A stretch of 64,000 bases of DNA from an uncultured Bdellovibrionales bacterium (GCA_964500125.1 CAZCMV010000001.1:54119-118118), one strand, 5' to 3'; shown: positions 1,986-22,000, counted from the stretch's first letter. Translations and numbers: made by a program. Notes: a model not told the origin generated them from the sequence alone.

Positions 1986-2058
1986 AATTTTACAAAACCC
2001 CCGAATGGGGGGAGGGGGTGTTTTATATGAGCTATAGCCAGAAATTCTTCTGAAAATC

Positions 2059-4080: not shown

Positions 4081-4101
4081 ATTTTTAATTATTTTGAAAG
4101 C

Positions 4102-5956: not shown

Positions 5957-6148
5957 ATGTTTTCTGATGCACAAATCAAAAAATTTCAGATTATATACAA
6001 AAACCTCTACGAGGTTGAACTTAATCTTTCGGAAGTATGCGAAAAATTGGAAAGCCTAGTAAGAGTGATTGAGCTTACCTACAAACCAATGACTGAGAAA
6101 GAAATGGAACTGGTAAAAAAAAGACGTAAAGAAATGAAAATAATATGA
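5957..6148 (+). CDS. small hypothetical protein (63 aa), coiled-coil
   Basis: Stop overlaps start of next gene (ATGA coupling at 6145). Confidence 0.3.
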   Translation: MFSDAQIKKFQIIYKNLYEVELNLSEVCEKLESLVRVIELTYKPMTEKEMELVKKRRKEMKII

Positions 6149-6876: not shown

Positions 6877-6995
6877 TTCGTTTTCAATGCGAAAAACAAT
6901 AAAAAAATTCCGTTGTAATTTTCACTTTTGCTGAAAATGTATTTAGAGTCTACCTTTTTAGTAAAATTAAATAAGTTAATAAATTATAAAAATAT

Positions 6996-8660
6996 ATGAC
7001 TACAAATAAAACACAGGAAATCAAGTATTTCCTTTATGCGAGAAAATCTTCAGAAAGCGAAGACCGCCAGGTGCAATCAATCGACGACCAGGTTGGCAGA
7101 TTGGAGCGGTTAGCCAAGGAGAGAAACTTTCACATTAAGCACATTTACAAGGAATCAAAATCAGCGAAGAAACCAAACAATCGTCCCCTTTTTGATGAAA
7201 TGATGAAAAGAATTGAAAGCGGAGAGGTGGACGGAATTTTATGCTGGCACCTCAATCGTCTTTCCAGGAATCCGATAGACAGCGGGAAAATAAGCTGGCT
7301 CTTGCAACAAGGAGTTATCAAGTCGATTCAAACGATGGAAAAAGAATTTAGACCCGAAGACAATGTTTTGCTTTTTAGCGTTGAAAGTGGAATGGCAAAT
7401 CAATTTTGCCGAGAATTAAGCGTGAATGTAAAACGAGGCAATCAAAAGAAGCGAGAGGACGGCTGGAGACCTGGAATTGCACCCACAGGTTATTTAAACG
7501 ACCTAGCAACCCACACGATGCCCATAGACCCGTTGCGATTCAGATTGCTTCGCAAAGCGTGGGATTTGATACTTACTGGAAATTACACCGTGCCACAAGT
7601 TGCCGACAAACTTAATAACGAATGGGGATTCCGAACGATAAAGAAAAAACGACTTGGAGACAAGCCATTGGCATTAAGCGGGATGTATAAAATTTTCACC
7701 AATATCTTTTATGCAGGAATAATTGAACACAATGGAGTTCACTATCCAGGAAAACATAAGGCGATGATTACCTTGGATGAATTTGACCGTGCACAAATCA
7801 TACTTGGACACAAAGGGAAACCCAGACCCAAAAAACATCACTTCCCTTTCACAGGATTATTCCGTTGCCCTGAATGCGGTTGTATGTATACCGCTGAATT
7901 GAAAAAAGGGAAATATGTTTATTATCATTGCACACACAAAAATAAAAAAGTTAAATGTTCACAAAGAAAAGTTCTGGAGGAGAAAAAGCTCTTAGAACAA
8001 CTTGAATACGAACTTGGAAAATATACCATACCCCAAGAACTGCTCGCTTTGGCATTGGAAATAATCGAAAGCAGAAAGGAGACCAAAGCAGACGATGAAA
8101 AAATAATAGCCGAGACTCGCCAGCAAACTTTAGAGAAATTGAAAAACCAACAATCAAATCTCATAAGAATGCGAAGCAACGATATGATTGATGATGAACA
8201 ATTCAAAGTCCAAAGCGAACCGATAAAAAAAGAGATTGAGAGATTAAGTAATGAGCCTATGAGTGCCAAAGACCGAAAAGAAAAAACCCTAGAGCTAACT
8301 GAAAAAACTTTTGCCTTTTATGCTTACGCCCACAAAGCGTTTCTGACTGGCAATGATGAAACACGAAGAGAGCTTATATTTCATTTAGGTTCGAACCACG
8401 AAATAAAAGACAGAATAACCTCCATACAAGCCAAAGAATGGTTTTTGCCCGTAGCAAATAAGCGCAATGATATAAAGCGAGAATTTGAAAGGTTAGAACC
8501 GATGAAAAGTGGCTGTATAAAAGCAAAAAGCGGGCAATTAAGCCCACTTCTTAGCACTATGCACGGGGCTATGGACACGACTAGGAACAATATTTTGGAA
8601 AACTGGGACAGGATTGATGTCAGATTACAGCGCGCTCAAGCCTTATTACAGCGAATTTAA
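6996..8660 (+). CDS. large serine recombinase (resolvase/invertase catalytic domain + recombinase domain + zinc ribbon), element 1
   Basis: N-terminus YARKSSESEDRQVQSIDDQ (catalytic Ser motif), CWHLNRLSRN, and C-terminal CxxC...HC zinc ribbon; 554 aa. Confidence 0.85.
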   Translation: MTTNKTQEIKYFLYARKSSESEDRQVQSIDDQVGRLERLAKERNFHIKHIYKESKSAKKPNNRPLFDEMMKRIESGEVDGILCWHLNRLSRNPIDSGKISWLLQQGVIKSIQTMEKEFRPEDNVLLFSVESGMANQFCRELSVNVKRGNQKKREDGWRPGIAPTGYLNDLATHTMPIDPLRFRLLRKAWDLILTGNYTVPQVADKLNNEWGFRTIKKKRLGDKPLALSGMYKIFTNIFYAGIIEHNGVHYPGKHKAMITLDEFDRAQIILGHKGKPRPKKHHFPFTGLFRCPECGCMYTAELKKGKYVYYHCTHKNKKVKCSQRKVLEEKKLLEQLEYELGKYTIPQELLALALEIIESRKETKADDEKIIAETRQQTLEKLKNQQSNLIRMRSNDMIDDEQFKVQSEPIKKEIERLSNEPMSAKDRKEKTLELTEKTFAFYAYAHKAFLTGNDETRRELIFHLGSNHEIKDRITSIQAKEWFLPVANKRNDIKREFERLEPMKSGCIKAKSGQLSPLLSTMHGAMDTTRNNILENWDRIDVRLQRAQALLQRI

Positions 8661-8814
8661 CTCTTGCGCATCTCATTAAATGACAAATATAAATTAGCGA
8701 GTGAATCTAGCCATTCATCAGCCGTTTCACTTGATACATTCAAGTCATGATTTGCCTTGAAATAAGCGATTAATCTAATCCTTAATTCTTCTGAATATTT
8801 ATATTGCATATAGC

Positions 8815-9327
8815 TTATAACTTTTCATGATTAGTTCCACCTTTTAAATCATTACTAATCGCCTGCGCTAATTCTAGAAAGTTTCCACCCACTTGAATAT
8901 GTTGTATGGGCAGACTTATTGCTGAATATAATTCATCCACGAATTGATCACGATTTTTTCGTCTTGGGTCATTGTGTGATTTTCCATCCAATTCAATGGC
9001 AAGCAATGGTTTTGTTGTGGCATGATTGCACACAAGAAAATCAACATGGCGCGATTTGATTTTGCCACGAAGACCCCAATGACCATTACTGGATATATTC
9101 TTCTTGTCCACATCTACAAAGTCCTCAATGCGCACCTTAGACAATACAATATAAGCGTCTCCCAGCGCCTTCTGCAGATTAATGAATAATGCTTGCTCTG
9201 ATTCATTCATCACCCTGTCCTTCTTCTGATATGAAGACAAGCTCGTCAGTCTTTCCTTCTTCTCAATGAATGCCTTAGCAAGAGCAACAGCGACAATGAA
9301 GACGATTAAGATAATTGTCCAAGTCAT
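8815..9327 (-). CDS. DUF2726-family (restriction-endonuclease-like fold) protein with N-terminal TM anchor (170 aa)
   Basis: RHVDFLVCNHATTKPLLAIELDGKSHNDPRRKNRD matches the DUF2726 core (VDF..., ELDG.SH); N-terminal hydrophobic helix. Confidence 0.55.
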   Translation of the reverse strand: MTWTIILIVFIVAVALAKAFIEKKERLTSLSSYQKKDRVMNESEQALFINLQKALGDAYIVLSKVRIEDFVDVDKKNISSNGHWGLRGKIKSRHVDFLVCNHATTKPLLAIELDGKSHNDPRRKNRDQFVDELYSAISLPIQHIQVGGNFLELAQAISNDLKGGTNHEKL

Positions 9328-9413
9328 GGTTTTATTATTATTGAATTATATTTAATGAAACACGAAAACAAATCAACCCCGCTGTTTATCATGCAATAGT
9401 TGAAGAAAAAATA

Positions 9414-10214
9414 TTACTTTCCAGAAACATTATTTTCATAAACAAATACTGCACCATTTTTTTCAACAACATCCTTAACACATCGCATCCTTTCAATGAA
9501 ATTATCATCTGATTCATTTAAACTTTTCTTACAATCGTCACTCCATTTTTCCAACAAAAGAAGCCCTGCATGATGTAAAATTTTTTCAAAATCATCCGAA
9601 GAAAGAATTTGCACTTTATTGTTAATTGCATTAGTAATCTTTTCACTTTCCTTGTCATACAATGGAACTAATCCAATTTTGTTAACAGAGAAGAAATGTG
9701 TCAGTGAATTCCTTAAATCACGCAGATTTTTTGCACTTATTTTTCCTGCTCTTTTTGGGTTCTCCATTATCCACTTATTCTCCCTGCATAGGCAAAATTC
9801 GTTTATAAATTGATCCATCGCACCATCCGAAGCATCTCTGAGTTCCGCACTATCGCTCGTTTTTTTCTGATATGCAGTATGAAGACAACGAAGTGTCTCA
9901 AGATGAGCGAAAAGTACAATAAACTCCGACCTAACAGGACGAGGGAAATGGAACTTATCGGCTAACGTTTCCGGATTTTCAGAGAGTGTAAAGTTTAAAT
10001 CGTCCGGCGGATTCATTTTTGACATAAGAGCCAATAGTTCTCTGCATTGTCTTTTTATATCTTTCAGTCTTTTCTTATAGCCCATTAACTCATTAACTTC
10101 TGCTTCAATCTGAATTAAAAAACGAAAGACAACCCCAAATTCTGGATGAATATCAATTCTGTTTTGAACCTTATCCATAATCACAAATGGCATATTTTCT
10201 ATATTCTTGTTCAT
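9414..10214 (-). CDS. HEPN-motif (RNxxxH) protein (266 aa)
   Basis: NLRDLRNSLTHF contains R-N-x3-H; 4-nt ATGA overlap with upstream gene (translational coupling). Confidence 0.45.
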   Translation of the reverse strand: MNKNIENMPFVIMDKVQNRIDIHPEFGVVFRFLIQIEAEVNELMGYKKRLKDIKRQCRELLALMSKMNPPDDLNFTLSENPETLADKFHFPRPVRSEFIVLFAHLETLRCLHTAYQKKTSDSAELRDASDGAMDQFINEFCLCRENKWIMENPKRAGKISAKNLRDLRNSLTHFFSVNKIGLVPLYDKESEKITNAINNKVQILSSDDFEKILHHAGLLLLEKWSDDCKKSLNESDDNFIERMRCVKDVVEKNGAVFVYENNVSGK

Positions 10215-10828: not shown

Positions 10829-10830
10829 AT

Positions 10831-13800
10831 TTATTTAATGCAATTATTTACTACCTCAACCTCTTCCATTGTAAGTCCGTAAAATCCAAAGATGAGCTTA
10901 TCAATTTGTAATTCAAATTCTCTAATATCGGAGCCATCATTCTCCCTCTTAATATCTAAAATGCGCTCGACAATACTTATAACTTCTTCCTGTTCTTTTT
11001 TATTGCCAATAAAAATAGGTATTTCAATAATTGGATCCTTGTCAATTTGATAATTATTACCCTGCATCTTTCCTTTATTGTGAAGCCAAAAAGCAATTAG
11101 TTTAGAATTCAATATTCCAGTTAAATACTTTTGATTAATTCTACTTGTTTTTATAGAAAAAAATGCCCTAGAAACATAACAAGGAAAATCCGTGTAGGTA
11201 AATGTTGGACATGCACATTTTCTAACGGACATTATTTTTTCTCCTTGAAAAAAAGATTCTTTCCTTGGTCTATTTAAACCATAAGGTCCATTCTCAGATG
11301 TAATAATATCCTTAAATTTATCTAGATGCTTTTTTACCTCAGGATAATCATTGATTTTATCAGCTTTTTTAAATGATGAATCCGTATAGATGATCCAGAA
11401 CTTATTTTTTTTATTTCCAAAAATACCCTTTAATTCTTTTGTTGTATAATATGGTTTTAATAATTTATTTTCTTTTTCTGACAACTTAATGTTTTCTTTT
11501 TCATTATTTGAAAGAACAAATATACCATCTCCTATTTTAAAATTATTGCCAATTTCTTTTAAGGATTTTTTATTTACAAAATCCTGAAGAACATCAATTC
11601 CAGACATTAACTCACTTTTACCATCAATGAAAAACTTACCCTTTTCTGAAATCTTATTCAATATATTATTATCCTGAAGACTGCTAAAGACAAAGGTTTT
11701 ATTCTCGAAATAAGAACGATTGAAATTAGGATTAAGGTAGCAAAACTTATCATCCTTAACTTTATTTAATATTTTATTTACACAATTCAATGAAATTTTA
11801 TCATCAATTATTTTTCTATAATCAAATTGATACTCATTTAAACTATTATTTCGCTGAAGCAACATTATCATTGTTTGAATATCAGCACTTTCAAAAATTT
11901 TATAATTACCAAAATCAATAAAAGAAATCATTTTGGCATCTTTTGCGATCTTTAATCTAAGCTTAGAGGCCCCCGCATTTGTAACCCAATTATTAGAAGC
12001 AATAAAAGCAAGCACGCCAGTATTGGTCTTAAGTAAATCAATGAAAGTACAGGCAAAAAGATACCACAAATCCATTTTCCCTTGATAATACTGACTTTCA
12101 CGAAGTCCATCGAAAGCAGATTTATCTGTATGCTCTTTAATATAAGGTGGGTTCCCAATAACTACATCAAAACCACCCTTCTCTCTGAAAACGTCACTAA
12201 ACTCAAGCTTCCAAATAAAAAATGGACGGATATTCTTACGCCTAAGTTCTTTTATTTCCTCAAGCTTTTCCGTTTTACCCTGTTCTGCCAGTGTAATCTC
12301 AATCAGTTCCCACTTTAAATTATCAATCTCTTCTTTCAATTCTTGCTTATGTGTTCTTCGTGATTCACTTATGTATTGTTCAATTTTATTATGCAGAAGC
12401 TTAGTTTTCTCTTCTGCAATTCTCCTTTTTTCTGGAATTCCAAAAAGATTATTACTACTCGTATCAGAATTTTCAGATCCCTTGGAAAATAATTTAAGTC
12501 TTGATTGTAATGATTTTATTTCCCTCTCAATTTCCATCTTTCTAATTACTGTCAACTTGCCCTTATAATGCAGATCAAAATACTCCCGTTGAAATTTAGA
12601 AATTTCATCATTGACTTCTACTTTTTCTTTTTCTAAAGATTGCGCACTTTCAAGTATTGAATCATCAAATAATTTAATGCCTTCATATTCGGAAATAAGA
12701 CTATTACCTTGCATTATTTTATGCTCGAGATTTGGCAAGGGGTGCGGAATGTTTTCATCAACAACCAATGACAGCCAGAGGCGAAGCTTAGCGATTTCAA
12801 CCGCACCAGGATCAAGATCAACACCATAAATGGAATGGGAGATAGTGTGAAGTTTTAATTCATAATCAGAAATATTATCATCAAGATATATATTTAAGAC
12901 CTTTCTAGCTCTAACTATCTCATTAATCATGCCAAGCGGAAATGCGCCCGAACCAACAGCAGGATCAGCAATTTTTATATTTTCTAAGAGCTGATCTAAC
13001 AAAATTGCTTTTGATCTAATAGAGCCAGGCAGAAGTAATTCATATTTACCTCTATATTCAAAACCGCTAATTTCCTTTTCCCTTATCTTTTCTAGAGCAA
13101 CTTTGTCATTATCAATGATTCTATCTCCCCTACGTATAAGCAACTCTAAATCCTGCCTTGCAATATCAGTGCCGACTTCAGCTTCCAAATAGTTAATAAG
13201 ACTTTCTTGGCACATATAATGTACAATTTCACGAGGAGTGTAAAAAGCGCCCTTGCTTTTTCTATCTTTGATATCAAGCAAGTTTTCAAAAACTTTTCCA
13301 AGCATTTCAGGATCAACCGCAACCTCTTTTTCTAAAGGCTCATTTTCATTTACAGTAAAATTATATCTATCAAAAATATCAAAAATACCATCTCCGATAT
13401 CCCCTTCTTTGGTTCTATTATTATTAGAAAAAAGATCGTCAGGAAGAACAATGTTGGTGGTTTCCCATTTATATCCATTCATTGGTTCAAATAATCCACC
13501 ATTTAAAAATGGCATCCTGCAATTATTTAATCTAGGATAAATCGATTCCTTGCCACGATCTTGTGCAAGAGCTTCGTAAAATAATGGCTCCAAAACATCA
13601 TTAAAGAAATTTTTACCATATTTTTTTCGGCGTTCGAATAGTTCGCGTATGAATTTCTTAGGTCCCTCGCCCCATTTTTTTTCAGGCGAAACACCAAACC
13701 AGCCTTTTTTTTGTAAAAAATAAAGGAAGACAATTTGCCCTAAAGTTTTTTTTGCAAAATCAACCGTTGAAATTTCCTTTTCTTCAAATTCTTTTTTTAT

Positions 13801-14445
13801 CTTTTCATCATTAAGAAGAACAGCATCCAAACATTCCTTGAGATGAAAATATAACTCGGTATATTTACTAAAAAATTCTTTTGTTATTACTTCAATATCA
13901 AAAGCAAGTTCCAATTCTGAAAGATTTGGATTTTCATTACTTATAAGCAGATTCATAAATCTACTTTGTGCTGTATGACTACCTTCATTTTCACCAACCA
14001 AAAATGACCATCTCCGAGCAGGGGTTATTTCTGCCTTGGTTTTTAATTTTTCATTTACAACCTCCAAGGAATGTTCCAATTTTACAAGTGAAAGACGCCA
14101 ATCTCTATTTCCAGGAGAAACAAACGCTACCAAAGCTGCTTCCTTGTTATTTGTCTTAAGATACTCGGCTACAAAATTTCGTTGAGCTGTTCTAGCTCTC
14201 TCAAGAGTTGAATTTTTGTTAAGAGCAACTTCCAATATGTCTATTTTATTCCCAAAGCAATCCTCAAAATATCCAATTACCTTATATTTAAGAATAAATG
14301 GAAGAAATGAATGTTTTATGATCGGCTCAAAACCACTCGACTTATACTCCTTAAAAAGATTTCTAACGAAAAGTAGGAAGTTATTTTCATCAAACTTATC
14401 ATTAAACGCAGATGCAATAATTTTTTTTGCTTCTTCCTTTGTCAT
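10831..14445 (-). CDS. gamma-class N6-adenine DNA methyltransferase, Eco57I/PglX/DrmMI-like (1204 aa); possibly a Type IIG R-M fusion
   Basis: GAFYTPREIV (motif X), DPAVGSGAFPLG (SAM motif I), VVIGNPPYIKEH (NPPY motif IV); long C-terminal TRD-like region; ~170-aa N-terminal domain of unclear function. Confidence 0.85.
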   Translation of the reverse strand: MTKEEAKKIIASAFNDKFDENNFLLFVRNLFKEYKSSGFEPIIKHSFLPFILKYKVIGYFEDCFGNKIDILEVALNKNSTLERARTAQRNFVAEYLKTNNKEAALVAFVSPGNRDWRLSLVKLEHSLEVVNEKLKTKAEITPARRWSFLVGENEGSHTAQSRFMNLLISNENPNLSELELAFDIEVITKEFFSKYTELYFHLKECLDAVLLNDEKIKKEFEEKEISTVDFAKKTLGQIVFLYFLQKKGWFGVSPEKKWGEGPKKFIRELFERRKKYGKNFFNDVLEPLFYEALAQDRGKESIYPRLNNCRMPFLNGGLFEPMNGYKWETTNIVLPDDLFSNNNRTKEGDIGDGIFDIFDRYNFTVNENEPLEKEVAVDPEMLGKVFENLLDIKDRKSKGAFYTPREIVHYMCQESLINYLEAEVGTDIARQDLELLIRRGDRIIDNDKVALEKIREKEISGFEYRGKYELLLPGSIRSKAILLDQLLENIKIADPAVGSGAFPLGMINEIVRARKVLNIYLDDNISDYELKLHTISHSIYGVDLDPGAVEIAKLRLWLSLVVDENIPHPLPNLEHKIMQGNSLISEYEGIKLFDDSILESAQSLEKEKVEVNDEISKFQREYFDLHYKGKLTVIRKMEIEREIKSLQSRLKLFSKGSENSDTSSNNLFGIPEKRRIAEEKTKLLHNKIEQYISESRRTHKQELKEEIDNLKWELIEITLAEQGKTEKLEEIKELRRKNIRPFFIWKLEFSDVFREKGGFDVVIGNPPYIKEHTDKSAFDGLRESQYYQGKMDLWYLFACTFIDLLKTNTGVLAFIASNNWVTNAGASKLRLKIAKDAKMISFIDFGNYKIFESADIQTMIMLLQRNNSLNEYQFDYRKIIDDKISLNCVNKILNKVKDDKFCYLNPNFNRSYFENKTFVFSSLQDNNILNKISEKGKFFIDGKSELMSGIDVLQDFVNKKSLKEIGNNFKIGDGIFVLSNNEKENIKLSEKENKLLKPYYTTKELKGIFGNKKNKFWIIYTDSSFKKADKINDYPEVKKHLDKFKDIITSENGPYGLNRPRKESFFQGEKIMSVRKCACPTFTYTDFPCYVSRAFFSIKTSRINQKYLTGILNSKLIAFWLHNKGKMQGNNYQIDKDPIIEIPIFIGNKKEQEEVISIVERILDIKRENDGSDIREFELQIDKLIFGFYGLTMEEVEVVNNCIK

Positions 14446-14447
14446 AT

Positions 14448-17400
14448 CTAGTTGATATTAAAATATTCAGAAAGTATAATCTCCTTTTTTGCAGATACAC
14501 CATCATTTTGCTCGTTTTGATTTGGCATCAAGAAATCAGCAGGAAGAGTGGTTTTTAAGATTGCCAGAAGTTTAATTGGGTTCGCAATAATTTCTGGCAT
14601 TTCCTGAATTTTATTATAAATTGTTTGAGATATTTTCTTTGGAATTCCACCAGTGTTAAGCTCCTCAATAACTTGTCTAATATAAGATTCATCATCCTCT
14701 GTAAAGCCCTTAAAATTTCTAATTTCTTTTGCGCTCAAAAGCTTGTGAAGACGTGCGGCATTATCCCTACTTCCACGCTTAGATGAAAATTCTTCCTCCT
14801 CATTCTCGCCAACATTTTTCAACATTTCCAAATTCTTATCAAGCAATTCATAGAATAGTTTATCTTGTTTGTTTTTTTTCTCATCTGGCTGAGCCGATAG
14901 TGTTTTTGCCGCTTCCGTAAAATCAATCTCGGAAGAAACTGAGACTGCACCATTTTCCACAATGAAAAACTTTTGTAATTTTCCTTTTCTGAAATATGTT
15001 AGTAATTTAACAATACTATCTTTTGATTCACGAACTGTTCTTGCCTTCTTTGGAAGTCTTTTTATTTTTTCAAATAATTCAGGATTTTCATCCCTTATCC
15101 TTCTGATCTCTTGCAAATACCCAAGCTCACTTTCTCCCTCATCCATCTCACCCTCAATCATTTCTTTTGATAAGATTTGACTGAAAAGGCTGTGCCCTTC
15201 TGGGACTTCACTTTCAGTTAGAAGTTTTGCGTCAGCACCAAGCAATGTGATGAATGCTTGAATTTTAGCTTCTGCCATTTCTTTTAATTTAATCTGCTCA
15301 TTTGATTGGTCTGTTGGAAAAAAAGTATATGTATAAATTTTGTCATGTTTTGCATCGACTCTGTTTATGCGACCGACTCGTTGCATTATACGTGTAGGAT
15401 TCCATGGAATATCATAATTTATAACGACATTCGCCTGATGTAAATTAGCACCTTCAGACAAAACATCTGTTGTTATCAGAAGCGTGAAATCATTCTTAAT
15501 ATTTTTTGCATTTGCATCAAAATTCTCCATCACTATTTCTCGTTCCGCCTGTGAACTCTCTCCTGAAAAATACAGGATTTTATCTGGAAAAATATCTTGC
15601 AAATTCTTCACCAAATATTGTGCTGTTTCTTTTGATTCGGTAAATATTATAGACTTTCCAATTTTTACAGGCTCCTCAATGGCAAGCTTTTCCTTAAATG
15701 CTATGATTTTAGGATCGCGATCGATACCTTTCCATAATTCCTGAATATCTTTCAGGATATTCAAATCATTATTAAGATCAACAATAAAGTTTTCATTAAA
15801 TTCATCACTAGAAAATTTCTCCGCTTTGCCATTCGCAATAAGCTGATCAATAGCATCCAAATTATCGTTCTCTAAATAATCAAATATTTTTTGAATATTT
15901 TTTTTGCTCACATATACATTGCCAGAATTGAACTCATTTATAAATTTTTCATATGACGCAACAAAGCGATTTATCGATTGACTAAATGCAAAAAAACTAC
16001 TTTCTAATCTTTTAATCAAAAGCATTCTCATGAATTTCATCATGTTCTTTTGTTGTTGCTCCTCTGAACTCAAAAGCCCCTTATGATAAAGTAACGGCGT
16101 ATAGCGAGAATACTTGAAATCATTGGTTATAATCTTAATTGTCTCAAAAAAAACATTGTCTTCTTTTTCATTGAATTCATAAAAAATCGGCTCTGGATTG
16201 GCAATTTCAGGAAAACTCATTTTTTGTTTTTTCAAATCATCTCCGTAATATTTTGTGATTTCCGTTCTGGTGCGTCTAACCATTAAATATTTCAATACGC
16301 GCTCTCTAATCAATTTAGAGTTTTCTTTTGTAATGGAAATATATTCTTGTTTATCTTTTTGCCTGTCGAGCCCTTTAAGTTTTTTCTCTAAATTCTTAAA
16401 AAACCCCTCAAGATCAGGAAGACTTGGAATTGTACTTTTTCTTGAGCGCTGAAAAAGTTTAATCTGTGCTAACAAATCAGATGGCGAATTATTATATGGT
16501 GTAGCTGTCACCAAGATAACTTTTTTGCCCCTGCAAATCTGCGCAAGCTTTGCATAGGTATCAGTTTCCTCTGTTCTGAATCGATGCGCTTCATCAATAA
16601 GAACAACATCAAAATCCTTCTGCAAGTCCTTTTTTATTATCTTATCCAAAATCCCAATCGACATGCATTTGTAATCTTTTGCTCGAAATCCAAAATTGCG
16701 AAAAGCGTTTTCCCAGCTTCCCTCATTGCTCTCGCTAATCAAGTGTGGTGGCGCCAAAACCAATGTCCTGCCCTTTAACTCCTGACAAAGCATTGTGCCC
16801 ATGAAGGTTTTACCAAGACCCACAACATCCGAAAGAAAAACACCACCATATTCCTCCACAATTTTTCGAGCGTTAATAACAGCATGATCCTGATATTTTA
16901 ACTCCTTAAAATTGTGCGGACGGAAATTGTGCTCCAATGATTGGCTCTCATTAATCTCTTCCTTAAAATATTCATACAGAAATTTTAGATAGAGCTCGTA
17001 TGGAGTGATATCTTCGCGAAGCCATGTATCTTTTTTTATCGTTTCTAGATATTTTTCACTCACATCAACTCCTTTTTCCCATAACTCTTCAAATTTAGAC
17101 TTGGCAAATTCATAATCAGAAGGATTCTTAAGCTCAACATTAAATTCCAAATTATCCACCAAGCCACTTTGTGTAAAATTGCTTGAGCCAGTAATAACAC
17201 GACCAAGATCCCGATCATCTTCATCGAATGTCATTATGTACAATTTGGAATGAATCTTTTCTTCAGGATAAGCTCGGATTTCTAATTTATCACTAGACAG
17301 CCATTCAATAAATTTCAACACCCCTTCTTCTACTTTTACATTGTTTTCACAATCTTCCATTTCTTTTTTTACCTCCTCACCAATCTGTTCTCCTATTTCC

Positions 17401-17687
17401 TTGTGTGATTGAATTTTTTGAAGCAAATCATAAGTCTGATGATTAGTGCTAATTCCAATCAGAATTCTTATTTTTTCAGTTTTTTCCAAACTAGGATAAA
17501 TAGCATAAAAACCGCTTGTATAAAAATAACCAACCAAGACATCAAAAAAACGTGTGTCTTTAATTAAAACTCTGAAACGATCAGCAAGATTATTGTTTTT
17601 TTCATTGGTTAAAAATGTAAGATCTGTATTCATGTTTTTATTGAAAATAGAAAAATTATAAATCAGTCCATTTAAATTCAAAGGCAA
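14448..17687 (-). CDS. PLD(HKD)-family nuclease fused to SNF2-family helicase (1079 aa)
   Basis: N-terminal PLD: YFYTSGFY..., HSKLYIMTFD (HxKx4D), GSSNFTQSG. Helicase: GLGKT (motif I), VLIDEAHRFR (DEAH), C-terminal QRVGRINR (motif VI). Confidence 0.85.
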   Translation of the reverse strand: MPLNLNGLIYNFSIFNKNMNTDLTFLTNEKNNNLADRFRVLIKDTRFFDVLVGYFYTSGFYAIYPSLEKTEKIRILIGISTNHQTYDLLQKIQSHKEIGEQIGEEVKKEMEDCENNVKVEEGVLKFIEWLSSDKLEIRAYPEEKIHSKLYIMTFDEDDRDLGRVITGSSNFTQSGLVDNLEFNVELKNPSDYEFAKSKFEELWEKGVDVSEKYLETIKKDTWLREDITPYELYLKFLYEYFKEEINESQSLEHNFRPHNFKELKYQDHAVINARKIVEEYGGVFLSDVVGLGKTFMGTMLCQELKGRTLVLAPPHLISESNEGSWENAFRNFGFRAKDYKCMSIGILDKIIKKDLQKDFDVVLIDEAHRFRTEETDTYAKLAQICRGKKVILVTATPYNNSPSDLLAQIKLFQRSRKSTIPSLPDLEGFFKNLEKKLKGLDRQKDKQEYISITKENSKLIRERVLKYLMVRRTRTEITKYYGDDLKKQKMSFPEIANPEPIFYEFNEKEDNVFFETIKIITNDFKYSRYTPLLYHKGLLSSEEQQQKNMMKFMRMLLIKRLESSFFAFSQSINRFVASYEKFINEFNSGNVYVSKKNIQKIFDYLENDNLDAIDQLIANGKAEKFSSDEFNENFIVDLNNDLNILKDIQELWKGIDRDPKIIAFKEKLAIEEPVKIGKSIIFTESKETAQYLVKNLQDIFPDKILYFSGESSQAEREIVMENFDANAKNIKNDFTLLITTDVLSEGANLHQANVVINYDIPWNPTRIMQRVGRINRVDAKHDKIYTYTFFPTDQSNEQIKLKEMAEAKIQAFITLLGADAKLLTESEVPEGHSLFSQILSKEMIEGEMDEGESELGYLQEIRRIRDENPELFEKIKRLPKKARTVRESKDSIVKLLTYFRKGKLQKFFIVENGAVSVSSEIDFTEAAKTLSAQPDEKKNKQDKLFYELLDKNLEMLKNVGENEEEEFSSKRGSRDNAARLHKLLSAKEIRNFKGFTEDDESYIRQVIEELNTGGIPKKISQTIYNKIQEMPEIIANPIKLLAILKTTLPADFLMPNQNEQNDGVSAKKEIILSEYFNIN

Positions 17688-17814
17688 TGCCTATTGATTA
17701 AGGCAAATTTTGGCTTTGTTTCAAGTTTTTCCGTGCTTTAATGGTATCACTAAGTCAGCATTTATTCAAGCTATTTGACAAGAATCGCCACTTGTATATT
17801 ATTGAGGTAAGAAA

Positions 17815-18028
17815 AAGGTTACCCTGCACCGGACTCGAACTAGGAATTCGGAAAAGTCTATGGCAGGGAGTGTTTCCTCGGAGCAAGAGAAAAAAGAATT
17901 GCTCCTGTAATGCGCAGATTGCCAATGCTGCCGGGACACTTTAAGGCACAGTCAAGATCCCTCTTTATGATGTGGTTTTGTATGTGCTCAGATTCTTTTT
18001 CAAGAACCGCATCATATGCGGTTTTTTT
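17815..18028 (+). ncRNA. candidate small RNA ending in an intrinsic terminator; contains a tRNA T-arm-like fragment
   Basis: GC-enriched, non-coding; ggactcgaac (T-loop-like) at 17828-17840; hairpin ggagcaa-N12-ttgctcc at 17878-17905; terminator aaccgcatcatatgcggttttttt at 18005-18028. This orientation would be divergent from the defence operon promoter. Confidence 0.25.
18005..18028 (+). terminator. rho-independent terminator
   Basis: 8-bp GC-containing stem aaccgcat/atgcggtt, 3-nt loop, followed by T7. Confidence 0.5.
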
Positions 18029-18055
18029 GTCGTGAAAAATAAAAATCAAACAAAA

Positions 18056-18232
18056 ATGCAATCCCAATTCAGCCCAGCATTAATAGCCAAGTGCCAAAAA
18101 GTGATCTTCCAGAAATCAGGCAAAAAAATCAGCAAAGCGAAAGCCGAGCTGTATCTGGAAAAATTCGCGCGATATTTCATGCTGGCCGTGAAAGTTTTGG
18201 ATCAAGAAGCAAAAACTAAAAAATTAAAATAA
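18056..18232 (+). CDS. small hypothetical protein (58 aa)
   Basis: ATG at 18056 in frame with listed ORF; lysine-rich C-terminus. Confidence 0.3.
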   Translation: MQSQFSPALIAKCQKVIFQKSGKKISKAKAELYLEKFARYFMLAVKVLDQEAKTKKLK

Positions 18233-18239
18233 AAATCCA

Positions 18240-18515
18240 ATGGCAAAAATCATTAAAATTGACGAAATATCCCAAATTAAACTCCTTTCTGGCAATATAA
18301 TGCTTCAGCATTTGAAAAAATCTAAAACTGGACGAATAGCGTGGGTTACAGACGGCAATTTTTCCACATGGGCATCAACGTGTGAGTTCTACATTTTTCA
18401 GGCACCATACCGCACCATTGAAGGCACAGCGCAAATTGAGAGACTAATCGAAGTCGTGATAAGGTCGACCGACCAGATCAGTCAGGTTTTAATAGATAAC
18501 AATTTAAACAATTAA
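18240..18515 (+). CDS. small hypothetical protein (91 aa)
   Basis: ORF immediately following previous small ORF; same strand. Confidence 0.35.
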   Translation: MAKIIKIDEISQIKLLSGNIMLQHLKKSKTGRIAWVTDGNFSTWASTCEFYIFQAPYRTIEGTAQIERLIEVVIRSTDQISQVLIDNNLNN

Positions 18516-18527
18516 TAACAAAACAGT

Positions 18528-18710
18528 ATGACTGATGAAAAAGCTGAAAAATTCCCTGATGGAATCTGTCCGTTCATGAGCACACCGGAAAATCCGGTAC
18601 CATGTAGCGGAATATGCCAACTTCACAGAAAAGGCAAAAAAGGTTTTGCCTGTCCATGGCATGATCTTGCCATTATTGCCTGGAATTTGAAACCCGAAAA
18701 CAGACGCTAA
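18528..18710 (+). CDS. small cysteine-rich (zinc-ribbon-like) protein (60 aa)
   Basis: CPF...PCSGICQLH...CPWH gives 5 Cys/2 His spaced like a zinc-binding knuckle. Confidence 0.35.
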   Translation: MTDEKAEKFPDGICPFMSTPENPVPCSGICQLHRKGKKGFACPWHDLAIIAWNLKPENRR

Positions 18711-18720
18711 AGCGTGACGG

Positions 18721-18970
18721 TTTCGAAAAAGAAAGGCGCCCCAAAGAAAAACACTATATATACAAAATGCATCCATGTTCAAGAATTGAACTTTCGAAAA
18801 GAAACGATGTACATATAACCATATATTATATATACATTATGTTCCCATGTTCAAGAATTGAACCTTCGATGAGAAAAGATGTATATATAAACATTCAATA
18901 TATATAAATAGCCACCCCATATATATTTTTTGTTTTTTTCCATGTAAGGGCGCCGAACTTTTTCGAAGGT
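18721..18970. repeat. AT-rich cassette: two ~70-bp direct repeats, each with a TTCAAGAATTGAA palindrome, flanked by ~20-bp imperfect inverted repeats (GGCGCC...CTTTTTCGAA)
   Basis: Direct repeats at 18771-18844 and 18845-18910; left flank tttcgaaaaagaaaggcgcc (18721-18740) and right flank gggcgccgaactttttcgaa (18948-18968) are reverse complements with 3 mismatches. Confidence 0.5.
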
Positions 18971-19099
18971 TTAAAAAAAACGGAATTCATTAAAAGATTT
19001 AAAAGAAAAATAAAAATGCATCTGAAATCTGACAAAATCGCGCGATAAGTGCTACAAGCTAGACAGGATTTGTTTTATGGCTCAAAGAAGCCATTATTC

Positions 19100-19900
19100 A
19101 AACACTAACTGGTGAGCCTGATTAAGAGAGCAATTTTCCGCCAGCCCGCACCCGCAACGAACCGCAGACTTCAGCAAATTCACAAAACCAAACAGAGGCG
19201 CAGTTGAGCATTTTGAGAGTTGCTGTCACGCATTCCAAAAAGAAATTTTCTGAGCAGGTGCCTTGTTTTTCTCTTGGCGACCACGGGAGCACAAGAGCAA
19301 AAAACAAGAGCATCAGCGGAGGGAAATTTCGTCGTGACAGCAACGGTCAAGAAAAAGGAGCGGAAAGATTGTGCTTGGAGGACGATTAAGTCCGACAAGC
19401 TTTCATTATCCGCGACCACCTTTGACACGATTGAGAAGCGAACCACCAGCGTTGATTGCAATGAGAGGGAGAGCGAACGACCGTCCCTGCAGAGCGACCA
19501 CTTCTTTTGAAGTCGTTGCAGTCTCAAGCCCCTCAAGACTGAGGGGTTGGGGGTGTTGAAAGTCCAAGCGAGAAAAGAAAAGAGTGTCTGACAATGCTGC
19601 ATTCTTGCGACATTCCAAGCTGTCAAAAATGACGCCGAGGGAACGCAGAAGGAAATTTTTGAAACAGCTTGTGCCAATGTCGCAAAATGTCACATTGTCA
19701 GAGGGTGAGAAACACCTTCCTTCAGAATGTTAAATCGTCAAAGTGTTTCTCAATCCCCTTGCACCTTTTCTTTTCAACTCCTTGAGGGATTGGAGTTTGA
19801 GGAAAACCGCAGTGGTTTTCTCTCATTTTTAAAGAGTTTTTTCAAAATCTATAAAAATAGTGCGGTGAGAAACATTTTTCTATTCGAAAAGAATTGAAAC
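19100..19900. other. GC-rich (~50%) non-coding island; candidate large structured RNA or decayed foreign DNA
   Basis: No convincing ORF on any frame (overlapping low-complexity ORFs on both strands); perfect hairpins e.g. cccctca-agac-tgagggg (19531-19548); long-range complement tgcgacatt (19606)/aatgtcgca (19677); motif ggtgagaaaca twice (19705, 19867). Confidence 0.3.
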
Positions 19901-19935
19901 TTGCCTGTCTGATTTTTCCGGTAATCCGGAAAATA

Positions 19936-20337
19936 TCAGTCTGGCAAGTTCTCCTCTGTGTATTTATATTTTCGAATAGAAAAATGTTTCTGACCGCTTT
20001 CCTTAATGATTGATTTTGAAAAGACCTCCGCTTTGTATTTAAAGAGTTTGGCGAGAATTAAGACTGCTTTTTCGGAAAAATCTTTGCCGAGCCAACTCCC
20101 TATTTGGAGCCGTAGAAGCACGGAAAGTATCACTAGAAATAAATAAAATACTATGATATTATTGATGTGGACACAACTAAAATACTCATCGAAGACAGAA
20201 AGGGCAACCTTTGCTGCAATCTTCGATGAGAAGTTGTGTCCAAAGCGGGGTTGTCCTTTTTGTTTTGCAAAAAATATGAATCTTCTGGACACAATTTCTT
20301 TATCAAATAGCGGAATGGCCAGCGCAGGCGAGCTCAT
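19936..20337 (-). CDS. hypothetical membrane-associated protein (133 aa)
   Basis: ORF divergent from recombinase 2; one hydrophobic helix. Confidence 0.3.
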   Translation of the reverse strand: MSSPALAIPLFDKEIVSRRFIFFAKQKGQPRFGHNFSSKIAAKVALSVFDEYFSCVHINNIIVFYLFLVILSVLLRLQIGSWLGKDFSEKAVLILAKLFKYKAEVFSKSIIKESGQKHFSIRKYKYTEENLPD

Positions 20338-20399
20338 CTTGTTTTTCGGTGTGATCGCACTAATGATTTTTGACGAAATAATTTCTAAAAATAAATAAT

Positions 20400-21989
20400 A
20401 TGAAATACGTCATTTATGCCCGAAAATCAACCGAGAGCGAAGACCGCCAAGCGCTCTCAATTCAATCTCAAATCTTTGAGATGAAAGAAGTCGCCAAGCG
20501 CGAACATCTTAAAATTGTTGAGGTTCTGGAAGAATCCAAATCCGCCAAACAACCCGGCCGACCGATTTTCAATGATATGATTAAGAAATTCAAAAGCGGA
20601 AAATATGAAGGAATTCTCTGTTGGAAAATAGACCGACTCGCCAGAAATTCACTCGACGCAGGAATGGTGCAATGGCTTTTGGAAAAAGGAACAATCAAGC
20701 AAATAAAAACCTTTGAGCGCGATTATAATCCAAGCGACAACGTCGTGATGGCCAGCATTGAGTTTTCAATGGCCAACCAATATGTCCGCGACCTTTCCAA
20801 GAATGTGAAGCGTGGACAGGCGGAAAAGATTCGTCGTGGCGAATATCCTGCCACTCCCCCAGTCGGATATCTCATCGATTATAAAACCAAGAAAATATAC
20901 ATCGACGAAGATAAATGGCATCACATCAAAAAAGCTTTCCAGCTTTATGCGACTGGAAATTATTCAATTCCAAAACTGGCCGAGAAACTTTCAAAGGAAG
21001 GTTTTCGCTCACGCAATGGCCGACCAGTCCACGGATCCGGAATATACCAAGTTCTCAATAATCCTATTTATTACGGATGGTTTCGTTGGAATGACCAAAT
21101 CTATAAAGGAATTCATGCTCCGATGATTTCCAAGGATTTGTTTGATGCGGTGCAAGAAGTTTTTCATCCAAGAAAGCACACAGTTGAACGCAACGTTCAC
21201 AATTTTGTTTTTCGTGGGCACTTGGTTTGTGGAGAATGTGGATTGAAAATAACTGCAGAAACTCAAAAAGGTCATGTGTATTATCACTGCACAAAATCAA
21301 AAGGCGTGGACAAATGTTCACAGAAATATTTGCGCGAGGAAGATTTGATCACAGAAATCGACAGCCGTTTGGCAAAACTAAAAATTGACGAGGATGTGCT
21401 CGACCTTATGATTGAAGCATCAAGAGAATTGAGCAAGCATGAATGGAACGACATCCGCGAAATAGAAAAGAAACATCAAGCACTTCTGGACAATAATAAA
21501 TTCAGACAGGACTCACTCATTGAAAAGTACATCAGCAATGTCATTCCGGATGAGCACTACAATCGCAAATTGGCAGAGCTTCGCAATGAAGAAGCGGACA
21601 TCGAAGACAATCTGCGAAGCACCAAGGAGAATTTTCACAATGTTTTTGAGAAGATTGAATTGGCTGCGAGATTCGCCAAATTTGCCAAAAAGATCTTTGG
21701 GCGTGGCGATTTAGAAATCAAAAAAGAAGTTGTGGCAATCCTGACTTCGAACATTATCATAAAAGACAAGCAAATAAAGGAATTTCGCCTCGCTGAGCCA
21801 TTCGCCAGCGTGATGAAAGATGTTGAAATCACAAAGGGAAAAGGCAACGGAAAATCCAGTATCGAACTTGGCAGTTTTGCTTTATCTAAAACTAAAACAG
21901 CCCCCAAAAGGGAGGCTGTTTCACTTATGCACGGGGTGAGGGAATCGAACCCCCGCCAAAAGTTTTGGAGACTCTCGTTCTGCCACTAA
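20400..21989 (+). CDS. large serine recombinase, element 2 (paralogue of 6996-8660)
   Basis: YARKSTESEDRQALSIQSQ catalytic motif, CWKIDRLARN, zinc ribbon CGECG...HC; about 45-50% identical to recombinase 1 over the N-terminal 170 aa; 3' end reads through the tRNA-Trp 3' half (…HGVRESNPRQ…). Confidence 0.85.
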   Translation: MKYVIYARKSTESEDRQALSIQSQIFEMKEVAKREHLKIVEVLEESKSAKQPGRPIFNDMIKKFKSGKYEGILCWKIDRLARNSLDAGMVQWLLEKGTIKQIKTFERDYNPSDNVVMASIEFSMANQYVRDLSKNVKRGQAEKIRRGEYPATPPVGYLIDYKTKKIYIDEDKWHHIKKAFQLYATGNYSIPKLAEKLSKEGFRSRNGRPVHGSGIYQVLNNPIYYGWFRWNDQIYKGIHAPMISKDLFDAVQEVFHPRKHTVERNVHNFVFRGHLVCGECGLKITAETQKGHVYYHCTKSKGVDKCSQKYLREEDLITEIDSRLAKLKIDEDVLDLMIEASRELSKHEWNDIREIEKKHQALLDNNKFRQDSLIEKYISNVIPDEHYNRKLAELRNEEADIEDNLRSTKENFHNVFEKIELAARFAKFAKKIFGRGDLEIKKEVVAILTSNIIIKDKQIKEFRLAEPFASVMKDVEITKGKGNGKSSIELGSFALSKTKTAPKREAVSLMHGVRESNPRQKFWRLSFCH

Positions 21990-22000
21990 ACTAACCCCGC
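21930..22000 (-). tRNA. tRNA-Trp(CCA)
   Basis: Reverse complement folds as cloverleaf: acceptor GCGGGGT/ACCCCGT (G1-U72), anticodon stem AGAGT/ACTTT with loop CUCCAAA, T-arm GGGGG-TTCGATT-CCCTC, discriminator G. Confidence 0.75.

Follow-up and report, generated by a model that had tools for sequence, protein, structure and literature searches.

What arrangement of mobile DNA accounts for two paralogous large serine recombinases (LSR1 and LSR2) beside a tRNA-Trp gene, the nearer of which runs into that gene on the opposite strand? The window, the whole 64,000-nt stretch analysed here, comes from a genome of Candidatus Moranbacteria, a member of the candidate phyla radiation (CPR). The locus is very probably a stack of integrative elements, assembled in tandem at the tRNA-Trp 3′ end by large serine recombinases whose genes contain attP. 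The features on which this reading depends are collected in Table 1.

Table 1. Features of the array at tRNA-Trp, in window coordinates
Feature	Position	Strand	Remarks
Unit E_C	1-144		no recombinase; only its right end in the window
Flank-like segment left of site B	86-144		from alignment
Site B	145-184	+	core GCACG (145-149); arm remnant encoding HAIVKDVRTCFS and stop
Unit E_B	150-1253		no recombinase; arm remnant, two ORFs, flank-like right end
E_B, 66-aa ORF	274-474	-	
E_B, 192-aa membrane ORF	595-1173	-	
Flank-like segment left of site A	1195-1253		GTTCTATC, hairpin 1224-1244, T-rich spacer
Site A	1254-1341	+	core GCACG (1254-1258); far (P) arm of element 1
Element 1	~1259-8568		~7.3 kb; left end set by cognate arm at 1254-1341
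Element 1, AbiU2-type HEPN protein	1338-1985		cargo
Element 1, HEPN-like 422-aa protein	2059-3327		cargo
Element 1, two small membrane proteins; 245-aa ORF			cargo
Element 1, replication-initiator-like HTH_36 protein	6145-6876		cargo
LSR1	6996-8660	+	large serine recombinase of element 1; C-terminus chimeric
Terminator-like hairpin	8524-8553	-	12 bp + T-run; within LSR1 3′ end
Core, hybrid junction	8558-8568		P1′-O-P2; LSR1 end/far arm of element 2
Far (P) arm of element 2	8569-8660	+	encodes type-A tail AMDTTRNNILENWDRIDVRLQRAQALLQRI; now read as LSR1 end
Element 2	8569-21936		13,368 bp; absent from contig L002
Element 2, DUF2726 protein	8815-9327		cargo
Element 2, type IIG restriction-modification enzyme	10831-14445		cargo
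Element 2, HKD/PLD + Snf2 helicase	14448-17687		cargo
Element 2, conserved small-ORF module	~17750-20398		cargo; common to L006
LSR2	20400-21989	+	large serine recombinase of element 2; C-terminus is the integrated form
Intrinsic-terminator-like hairpin	21893-21923	-	13 bp + T-run; directly 3′ of tRNA-Trp
Core, LSR2 end of element 2/tRNA junction	21926-21936		attL-type, P2′-O-B
tRNA-Trp (anticodon CCA)	21929-22000	-	chromosomal target; ARAGORN

The target gene and the two recombinases

The tRNA-Trp gene encodes no CCA and lies in a tRNA-Trp/rpmG context that is syntenic in contigs L004, L009, and L089. An 11-nt core, TATGCACGGGG, takes in the 3′ end of this gene, from the acceptor 3′ strand over the discriminator to the first bases of the trailer; the core is present in identical form at the LSR2/tRNA junction and near the end of LSR1. 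This 11-mer is the exact common part of the 14/15-nt match with one indel that the initial annotation had correctly reported. Taken as bare DNA, the match is at chance level (E ~1.5 for an 11-nt match to the tRNA region of 131 nt; a 10-mer search with one mismatch allowed gave 3 matches vs 1.5 expected); it is meaningful because it lies in frame, at homologous positions in homologous proteins, and falls precisely where a natural insertion has its breakpoint. The hairpin directly 3′ of the tRNA is encoded antisense to the C-terminal codons of LSR2 (KTKTAPKREAV). With an intact tRNA, flanking direct repeats, and an integrase at one end, the locus has the makeup of a genomic island.

Resolvase, Recombinase, and Zn_ribbon_recom domains are found in both enzymes (PF00239, E = 8e-20 for LSR1 and 7e-19 for LSR2; PF07508 and PF13408 are matched by each). 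In the catalytic domain, residues Y14, R16, S18, Q25, R88, and R91 are invariant in alignments of 25 and 44 sequences; in the zinc ribbon, C291, C294, and C321 are invariant and C330 nearly so (P0125 numbering), and an AF2 model places long helices at 356-403 and 409-460 as an embedded coiled-coil. The resolvase domain, Recombinase domain, zinc β-ribbon, and coiled-coil expected of large serine recombinases are thus all present. LSR1 and LSR2 are 37% identical, in an alignment that extends to an S-x-M-H-G motif whose MHG is kept in close homologues. It had been asked whether this C-terminal similarity is homology or att-derived, and it proves to be both: within the motif, H-G together with the first base of the codon that follows corresponds to the tRNA acceptor end read antisense. 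The LSR1 ORF terminates in …LSTMHGAMDTTRNNILENWDRIDVRLQRAQALLQRI and that of LSR2 in …SLMHGVRESNPRQKFWRLSFCH. The previously noted overlap of LSR2 with the opposite-strand tRNA-Trp is confirmed, with 61 nt in common, and its final 17 codons, after MHG, are tRNA antisense. P0121, which is >90% identical to LSR2, comes from another host and has a different tRNA-Trp-derived tail, and P0125, 82% identical to LSR1, has an intact C-terminus with a type-B tail. The exact chimeric LSR proteins had no match in the protein collection.

Element 2 as a discrete insertion

Element 2 is a discrete insertion. The public contig L002 matches the window with 0 mismatches over 9,334 nt, up to 8568, and its next 19 nt are window 21937-21955, that is, the tRNA. 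For element 2 this supplies the comparison with an empty site proposed in the initial annotation, and the presence or absence of element 2 is precise at the 11-nt core, with the breakpoint at 8568/8569. The junction is not an assembly error, because an 11-nt repeat cannot give a k=31 misassembly. Since L002 joins 8568 to the tRNA, element 2 has the extent given in Table 1, although either end could be off by 11 nt, the core being common to both; of the earlier estimate of ~8569-21929, the left end stands and the right end is now 21936. In L002 the hairpin of the LSR1 3′ end stands directly after the tRNA.

Contig L004 carries a single LSR2-type element in the same host context, with a recombinase 82% identical and with flanking direct repeats of 9-11 nt. 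At its far end a terminator hairpin is followed by TATGCACGGAG and then by an arm ~90% identical to window 8569-8650, and its similarity to the window begins exactly at the core and is lost left of it. L002, where LSR1 abuts the tRNA, and the single element of L004 support the serial site-specific integration at tRNA-Trp put forward initially, while the L002 break and the L004 far end bear out the location of the attP core inside the recombinase 3′ coding end. The comparison indicates that the 30 residues of LSR1 past the core derive from the far arm of element 2. Codon differences in the type-A tail are 9 synonymous vs 3 non-synonymous.

Element 1

The left boundary of element 1, initially thought to lie possibly beyond position 1, is instead found at ~1254-1258, where site A carries the cognate arm. 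Site A encodes a detached type-B tail, HAVVEEVITIFENKNEYIYIPDLRKNHF followed by a stop (tblastn E = 1e-8; tail HMM 31.8 bits), and matches both the far end of the L009 element and the intact C-terminus of P0125. The L009 element is related, with a recombinase 88% identical to LSR1, and is flanked by a 5-nt repeat, GCACG. Between the type-B tail and the L009 remnant (HAVVEE...DLRKN) there are 15 synonymous and 0 non-synonymous codon differences. Evidence for the absence of element 1 is indirect, consisting of the arm and flank homologous to L009 and an unoccupied-looking flank/tRNA junction in L089. Elements 1 and 2 both bear anti-phage defence genes together with their own large serine recombinase.

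Family-wide pattern and tail conservation

The family of tRNA-end-targeting LSRs with an in-gene attachment site is large. Among loci from species-representative genomes, the recombinase ORF ends in, or reads through, an antisense tRNA in 57 of 72; among metagenome loci it does so in 38 of 64, and among 59 shorter relatives (~420 aa) from a viral contig collection in none. The tRNAs overlapped are those for His, Asn, Trp, Ser, Gln, Asp, Gly, Leu, Ile, Pro, and others. A T-arm antisense signature (D/E-S-N-P) is carried by 128 of 234 homologues, and in 64 of the 234 the ORF stops ≤3 residues from the core. Family members that target tRNAs have a C-terminal extension of ~70-100 aa, which contains attP. 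The C-terminus is tRNA antisense in integrated forms and a conserved tail in non-integrated or hybrid ones, and detached tails lie at element far ends; some members have native-looking, uninterrupted tails with no tRNA nearby. Conservation reaches 50-70 nt past the core (YIYIPDL motif), a span that exceeds the expected reach of a recombinase half-site. Judged from the codon differences, the detached tails are under purifying selection, and the tail is probably functional. No description of this LSR family, using tRNA ends and with the attachment site inside the recombinase gene, was found in the literature searched.

Proposed mechanism and alternative readings

In the model we propose, the attP of each LSR element would lie within the last ~100-170 nt of the recombinase gene that it carries: the P′ arm would be the coding sequence directly before the short core, the core would match the tRNA from the acceptor end over the discriminator to the first bases of the trailer, and the P arm would encode the last 25-30 residues of the enzyme. 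Recombination with the tRNA end would keep the tRNA intact, place an element-encoded terminator hairpin directly 3′ of it, and detach the native tail, so that the ORF would continue into the antisense tRNA to a chance stop codon. Element 1 would have adjoined the tRNA first; element 2 would then have come in at their junction or, equivalently, could leave there, and its entry would make LSR1 end with the tail of element 2. Integration and excision of element 2 cannot be told apart, as two states give no order of events. The junctions at the short core are precise, as conservative recombination would leave them. LSR1 and LSR2 themselves probably catalyse these events, the crossover dinucleotide would be CA or AC within GCACG, and the tail swap may alter activity or regulation. 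Exact-match searches among assembled contigs gave no excised circle or free attP, the predicted attP2 junction was absent from JGI metagenome contigs, terminal overlaps were seen in none of the contigs examined, and no recombination directionality factor was identified. A hybrid (attL-type) site is not an expected partner for attP when a serine integrase acts alone; element 2 occupies precisely such a site, which counts against the model.

The shared 11-14 nt could instead be conserved C-terminal coding sequence (S-x-M-H-G) of paralogues, with one island or none and no recombination at 8558-8568. The chance-level DNA match and the conservation of MHG among close homologues would suit this reading, but it is refuted by the L002 breakpoint, past which the contig runs on into the tRNA, and by the onset of L004 similarity exactly at the core; the sequence past the LSR1 core, moreover, belongs to LSR2-type and not LSR1-type elements, and we give the idea practically no credence. 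It is also very improbable that LSR1 keeps its own intact attP as a passenger in one composite element integrated once via LSR2. Its tail does look native and uninterrupted, like those that other family members have away from tRNAs, but this tail is of type A, cognate to LSR2-type elements (L004), whereas the closest LSR1 relatives (P0125, L009) use the type-B tail, detached here at site A, and in L002 element 2 alone is missing. As for the tail itself, read-through into the tRNA could be incidental, the functional protein stopping before the core and attP lying merely downstream. tRNA-derived tails range from 0 to >30 residues, which cannot all be functional, and structure prediction gives the tail pLDDT <50 (predicted disordered), hence no hint from structure as to its role; the detached tails are nevertheless conserved as protein, with many synonymous changes and beyond half-site expectation, and we consider an incidental tail unlikely.

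Recombinase-less units to the left

The array was initially described as two elements, and is found to have at least four units, at least two of them short, recombinase-less units further left than element 1. The segment at 86-144 is a homologue of the tRNA-Trp 3′ flank, which occurs both at the tRNA junction of L089 and at the far ends of the L009 and L004 elements. The segment at 1195-1253 reads, on the minus strand, as a terminator and then an extended -10 (TGATATAAT), after which the 192-aa ORF starts. In E_C, an HD-domain gene begins at 43 and runs leftward beyond the window. A fourth arm remnant (LHGIVNDVRTIFMSKNEMI) is located at window -733 to -671, in contigs L001 and L002 only. Both window units (150-1253 and <1-144) fit the definition of an att-bounded, recombinase-less cassette.

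Such units (window 1-1253; L050, L089, L051, L072, and others) have a slightly better than even chance of being decayed older elements, immobile by themselves. Those in the window lie on the older side, distal to the tRNA, the cores and arm remnants of the units are degenerate, and accretion is known to leave decayed, integrase-less elements that retain their att sites, as in ICESt1/ICESt3. No unit gene was seen moving between arrays, none being found common to different arrays, and no single-unit presence/absence polymorphism was found among L001-L003. Against decay, recombinase fragments occur in 0 of the 12 units examined (ten loci), the units are compact, with the largest intact ORF on the tRNA strand in 11 of the 12, and both window units have a terminator-plus-promoter end ahead of their first ORF. 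In L050 and L089, moreover, the unit has an intact LSR element on one side and the tRNA on the other, the younger position, and the L050 unit has a 39-nt arm 95% identical to that of the resident element; as evidence on unit mobility, this position is suggestive only.

Comparison with known systems

Like LSR1 and LSR2, the phiC31, Bxb1, and A118/LI integrases combine Resolvase, Recombinase, and zinc-ribbon domains with a long coiled-coil insertion, and phage-type serine integrases share with the tRNA-targeting family a 5-11 bp identity core and a recombinase gene adjoining the attachment site. Int-S cores are short (5-8 bp), and phage-type large serine integrases typically enter and disrupt protein-coding genes (PMC8092301). 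Unlike them, the tRNA-targeting LSRs use tRNA 3′ ends, restore the tRNA, add a terminator, and have the extra ~70-100 aa C-terminus with attP.

The chromosomal site of myxophage Mx8 is at a tRNA-Asp locus. Its attP lies within the integrase coding sequence, integration yields a recombinant gene whose 3′ end is new, and changed properties of the altered integrase were shown experimentally (PMC6070905). The Mx8 integrase belongs to the tyrosine family and is unrelated in enzyme and chemistry to LSR1 and LSR2. As in Mx8 and SSV1, the crossover here falls inside the integrase ORF and integration changes the C-terminus; LSR1 and LSR2 are serine recombinases by domain, without tyrosine recombinase chemistry, and they resemble Mx8 and SSV1 in logic without belonging to that family. 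The SSV1-type integrases of Sulfolobus viruses are tyrosine recombinases with attP inside the integrase gene, which integration into a tRNA gene splits into two large parts. The LSR family, in contrast, swaps only the last 25-30 codons and leaves the catalytic and DNA-binding domains intact.

Serine recombinases at tRNA 3′ ends are called rare in an excerpt of a paper that names phiRSM1 (tRNA-Ser) and the AICEs (actinomycete integrative and conjugative elements) of Mycobacterium (tRNA-Leu); in that excerpt phiRSM1 has a small resolvase-like enzyme, unlike LSR1 and LSR2, and neither an attP-in-gene arrangement nor a tail swap is reported (PMC3218068). As far as the excerpt goes these are isolated cases, whereas the LSR family uses >10 tRNA species.

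Elements with a common attachment site stack in tandem in ICESt1/ICESt3 and SXT/R391, and in accretion of the ICESt1/ICESt3 type att-flanked units without an integrase remain part of the array. Those systems rely on tyrosine recombinases, and the present array on serine recombinases. Also unlike them, the recombinase-less units here are very small (0.7-3.5 kb), those in the window have a terminator-plus-promoter end, and the ORFs of most units are on the tRNA strand.

Target tRNA and attachment core

The tRNA-Trp gene at which elements 1 and 2 are integrated has rpmG and a Thr-Tyr-Thr tRNA cluster at its upstream side, in the sense of the minus strand. The large serine recombinases of the two elements, LSR1 and LSR2, both contain Resolvase, Recombinase and Zn_ribbon_recom domains and are 37% identical, in an alignment that extends to S-x-M-H-G. 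The exact DNA common to their ends is TATGCACGGGG, at 8558-8568 and 21926-21936. Taken alone, such an 11-nt match is at chance level; it is significant through its position. The recombinase/tRNA-Trp overlap and the shared core proposed in the initial annotation were thus correct, as judged by ARAGORN, the ORF ends and the exact match. Source names of homologues assign the organism to Candidatus Moranbacteria, in the candidate phyla radiation (CPR, or Patescibacteria).

The core corresponds to the antisense of tRNA positions ~70-73 plus the first bases of the trailer, and the tRNA-Trp is still predicted by ARAGORN to form a normal cloverleaf after integration. Directly past the tRNA 3' end, on the tRNA strand, a strong terminator-like hairpin lies within the C-terminal codons of the recombinase. 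The T-run of this hairpin, read in antisense, encodes the conserved peptide KTKTAP, and in relatives with a host-encoded CCA the codon for the conserved Trp ahead of the junction is TGG, the antisense of CCA. The tRNA-Trp genes of the window and of the hosts of loci L004 and L006 have a G1-U72 wobble pair atop the acceptor stem and G73, and encode no CCA, CAT being found in its place; their U72 and G73 fall within the recombination core (window 21929-21936).

Coordinates and sequences of the main features of the tRNA-Trp locus
Feature	Position	Strand	Details
tRNA-Trp(cca)	21929-22000	-	ARAGORN
LSR2 ORF	20400-21989	+	ends ...SLMHGVRESNPRQKFWRLSFCH (stop); 61-nt overlap with tRNA-Trp
LSR1 ORF	6996-8660	+	ends ...LSTMHGAMDTTRNNILENWDRIDVRLQRAQALLQRI (stop)
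Terminator-like hairpin in LSR2	21923-21893	tRNA strand
Terminator-like hairpin in LSR1	8553-8524	tRNA strand
Site B arm remnant	145-184		encodes HAIVKDVRTCFS (stop)
Outermost arm remnant (C)	-733..-671		encodes LHGIVNDVRTIFMSKNEMI; visible only in L001 and L002
Predicted attP2 junction			GGCTGTTTCACTTATGCACGGGGCTATGGACACGACTAGG
LSR1/tRNA junction			CTTAGCACTATGCACGGGGTGAGGGAATCG
Predicted attP1 junction			CTTCTTAGCACTATGCACGCTGTGGTGGAGGAGG
Predicted element-free site			TTATTTTGTCGAGCACGGGGTGAGGGAATCG
Element 2 cargo			HKD/PLD+Snf2 helicase, type IIG restriction-modification enzyme, DUF2726 protein
Element 1 cargo			AbiU2-type HEPN protein, HEPN-like protein, replication-initiator-like HTH_36 protein adjoining LSR1

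Boundaries of the two elements

A look-up of the leftmost protein of the window identified the Logan contig L002 (sample SRR16951081), which shows 0 mismatches to the window across 9,334 nt, positions -765 to 8568 (negative positions lie left of the window). It departs from the window exactly at 8569, and its final 19 nt are window 21937-21955, the antisense of the T-arm of tRNA-Trp. LSR1 therefore abuts the tRNA in this sample and element 2 is absent. A second Logan contig, L001 (sample SRR8925823), is arranged as in the window. Assembly at k=31 cannot yield a chimera from an 11-nt repeat. Element 2, a discrete insertion, occupies 8569-21936 (13,368 bp), with the crossover somewhere within the shared core. 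Of the extent given in the initial annotation, ~8569-21929, the left end stands, the break in the L002 comparison lying exactly at 8568/8569, and the right end is corrected to 21936.

In a syntenic host, L004 carries a single LSR2-type element (recombinase 82% identical) at tRNA-Trp and rpmG. The far end of this element, ~10.9 kb upstream, consists of a terminator hairpin and TATGCACGGAG, followed by ~90% identity to window 8569-8650; left of the core, similarity to the window is lost. What LSR1 encodes past its core, a stretch of 30 residues, is therefore an in-frame reading of the far (P) arm of element 2. The two ends of LSR2-type elements share TATGCACGG.

The arm belonging to element 1 was found elsewhere. 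Full-tailed proteins closest to LSR1 (P0125, 82% identical) have the C-terminus ...TMHAIVKDVRTLFIENDKYIYIP..., unlike that of LSR1. Searching with tails of this kind revealed a detached copy at 1254-1341 (site A), encoding HAVVEEVITIFENKNEYIYIPDLRKNHF followed by a stop, and a matching remnant occurs at the far end of the L009 element, the recombinase of which is 88% identical to LSR1. Element 1 thus spans about 1259-8568, and does not extend leftward possibly beyond position 1 as had been considered before. The proposed serial integration at tRNA-Trp, with the attP core in the 3' end of the recombinase gene, was right in substance in view of L002, L004 and site A. In LSR1-type elements the end-to-end identity is only GCACG, of which CA and AC are non-palindromic dinucleotides, and we infer that one of these two is the crossover dinucleotide. 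The motifs GTTAGAAC and GTTCTAAC, found at some sites, were rejected as symmetric recombinase-binding motifs because LSR2-type sites lack them and the LSR1 gene has them wrongly oriented.

A recombinase family directed to tRNA 3' ends

Homologues at E<=1e-20 numbered 2,783 and 3,005 proteins in two lists, both with C-termini such as ...RWHGWRESNPRQRFWRP... or ...RWLGRRDSNPR..., in which D/E-S-N-P corresponds to the T-loop read in antisense. This T-loop signature was present in 128 of 234 full-length homologues; 64 of the 234 stop no more than 3 residues from the core, and native-type tails were found in about 20. A species-representative set comprised 80 loci listed, 72 of them with a complete recombinase 3' end; the best match among the 80 listed was 88% identical, the window's own genome not being one of them. 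The ORF stops within an antisense tRNA in 54 of the 72 and reads through one in 3. The tRNAs hit are His (23), Asn (10), Trp (8), Asp (3) and Gly (3), and further Gln, Ser, Leu, Pro and Ile. An independent JGI metagenome set gave ORFs ending in or through an antisense tRNA in 38 of 64 loci. As a negative control, and not as free forms, distant and shorter relatives (~420 aa) were taken from IMG/VR, a collection of viral contigs; none of 59 ended in a tRNA. Their ends coincide with a motif that the tRNA-targeting recombinases carry 70-100 residues ahead of their own C-terminus, so the attP-bearing region is a family-specific C-terminal extension. This large serine-recombinase family, mostly from CPR, targets tRNA 3' ends via an attP embedded in its own gene. 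Its hosts are mainly Patescibacteria, and tandem LSR elements also occur beyond the window (L031 and L045 on one contig).

By bin label, members also occur in a Pacearchaeota MAG (L077), an Aminicenantes chromosome (L072), Melainabacteria (L057) and Chitinophagales (L030); on the first of these contigs, binned as a DPANN archaeon, the recombinase ORF ends in tRNA-His. A whole antisense tRNA is read through at L069 (1897-2090), L010, L037 and L064, giving tRNA-antisense C-terminal extensions of up to ~50 residues, and the L069 ORF continues into a second tRNA.

Detached tails and a probable excised form

Once an element is integrated, its recombinase is translated without the detached tail. The site A tail (HAVVEE...DLRKN) differs from that of L009 by 15 synonymous and 0 non-synonymous codons, and window 8559-8660 differs from L004 by 9 synonymous and 3 non-synonymous ones; on these codon comparisons the detached tails are conserved as protein, a sign that the tail matters. 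In many lineages conservation reaches a YIYIP(D)L motif at a distance of 50-70 nt from the core, farther than a recombinase half-site should extend. Such conservation implies that the elements would repeatedly return to a form with recombinase and tail joined, namely the excised form. An AlphaFold model of P0125 has a mean pLDDT of 79.7, with tail residues 534-565 below 50.

Exact look-up in the protein collection returned neither LSR2 with its native tail nor LSR1 with a tRNA tail, the latter being missing because its junction occurs only on a contig that ends within the tRNA. A degenerate pattern for the predicted attP2 junction gave 0 matches in JGI metagenome contigs, and terminal overlaps indicating circularity were found neither in L089-L091 nor in whole JGI contigs.

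Recombinase-less units and the array

Window 1-1253, together with -765..0 in L001 and L002, contains two compact units with intact ORFs on the tRNA strand, each bounded by a recombinase-arm remnant on the left and a conserved terminator-plus-promoter segment on the right. Each of the two arm remnants left of element 1 has a degenerate core and a terminator-like hairpin before it. Homology links the segment at 86-144, left of site B, with that at 1195-1253, left of site A, and both of them with the far-end flanks of L009 and L004 and with the sequence immediately adjoining an apparently unoccupied tRNA-Trp in L089; on the tRNA strand, each comprises a terminator, then an extended -10, then the beginning of the following ORF. 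From these arm and flank segments the array reads [arm C] HD gene - [B] 66-aa and 192-aa ORFs - [A] element 1 - [core] element 2 - tRNA-Trp, and the recombinase-less units left of element 1 are older. A perfect 28-nt palindrome, AGAATTACGTAATTAATTACGTAATTCT, with a T-run lies at -765..-738, just left of the outermost arm remnant; the two independent Logan contigs end there, and the array is visible only up to this point.

Similar units were seen at L050, L089, L051, L063, L072, L076, L080, L088 and L014, and several arm remnants per locus are common, as in the last seven of these. At L050 and L089 a one-gene unit separates an intact LSR element from the tRNA. The tRNA-Trp 3' flank at L089 5135-5280 (hairpin, TTATCG, AGCACG) resembles an unoccupied native site, and an LSR element with an intact tail lies ~1.1 kb from it, past a single 322-aa ORF that is either a host gene or a cassette.

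These units have somewhat better than an even chance of being decayed elements, as against cassettes inserted in trans. Twelve of them, at 10 loci, contain no recombinase debris, and 11 of these 12 have their largest ORF on the tRNA strand; the 39-nt arm of the L050 unit is 95% identical to that of the resident element. No unit-level presence/absence polymorphism was found among L001-L003, and cassette genes common to different arrays gave no convincing case. It is rather unlikely that the units are real gene cassettes inserted in trans and, jointly, that tail exchange acts as a sensor of integration state. Under this joint proposal, a cassette would combine an arm bound by the recombinase with one to three ORFs and with a terminator-plus-promoter end mimicking the natural tRNA flank, and would be placed in trans beside the tRNA by resident serine recombinases. 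Each insertion would restore a usable target, and integron-like arrays could then grow at tRNA 3' ends in CPR. Tail exchange on integration would sense whether the element is free or integrated and might set the direction or level of recombination.

Relation to known systems

SSV1-type integrases carry attP within the integrase gene, and ICESt elements form tandem arrays at one shared site. Serine integrases are preferred tools for large-DNA insertion, with natural targets that are usually protein-coding genes, and CPR/Patescibacteria are still hard to manipulate genetically. The Int-S (serine integrase) systems of mycobacterial prophages use short cores of 5-8 bp and disrupt the ORFs into which they integrate (PMC8092301). 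Insertion at tRNA genes by serine recombinases is rare according to PMC3218068, the examples being phiRSM1 (tRNA-Ser) and a group of Mycobacterium AICEs (actinomycete integrative and conjugative elements; tRNA-Leu); SXT/R391 also form tandem arrays at one shared site, as cited in its reference list. In the tyrosine integrase of Mx8, attP lies within the integrase gene and integration creates a new 3' end (PMC6070905). The tyrosine enzymes of Mx8 and SSV1 have in common with the serine family the combination of attP in the integrase gene and a tRNA target.

A literature search of incomplete coverage turned up no publication about tRNA-associated serine recombinases in Patescibacteria/CPR, which is no proof of novelty, and a tRNA-targeting LSR family with attP in its own gene is a variant of already known kinds. 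It would broaden the target range of serine integrases to the conserved 3' ends of at least 10 tRNA species, with attachment sites readable straight from the recombinase gene and the tRNA restored, and could yield integration tools for CPR/Patescibacteria. The serine and tyrosine cases point to convergence on a design coupling integration state to enzyme form. The arrays show a route by which bacteria with very small genomes gather and swap defence genes at one locus.

Cargo

Elements 1 and 2 are small defence islands of the integrative kind that may be able to replicate; among the ORFs scanned, no gene for a phage structural protein was recognised. A near-identical recombinase, P0121, resides at the tRNA-Trp of another host with different restriction-modification cargo. 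The helicase (1079 aa) and type IIG enzyme (1204 aa) of element 2, at 10831-17687, resemble DISARM/BREX systems (DrmD and DrmMI matches); other components of these systems are missing beside the pair, and two ORFs downstream (205 and 266 aa) have no family match. The small-ORF block upstream of LSR2 (17750-20398) is ~70-90% identical at the amino acid level in the P0121 element (L006 7290-9990), where the cargo is different. This block has no family match among the ORFs scanned and is a candidate regulatory or directionality-factor module. The G+C content of element cargo, within 1-22000, is 0.29-0.34, versus ~0.35-0.41 in the flanking host region (22000-64000), and the recombinase-proximal 18-22 kb is at ~0.40.
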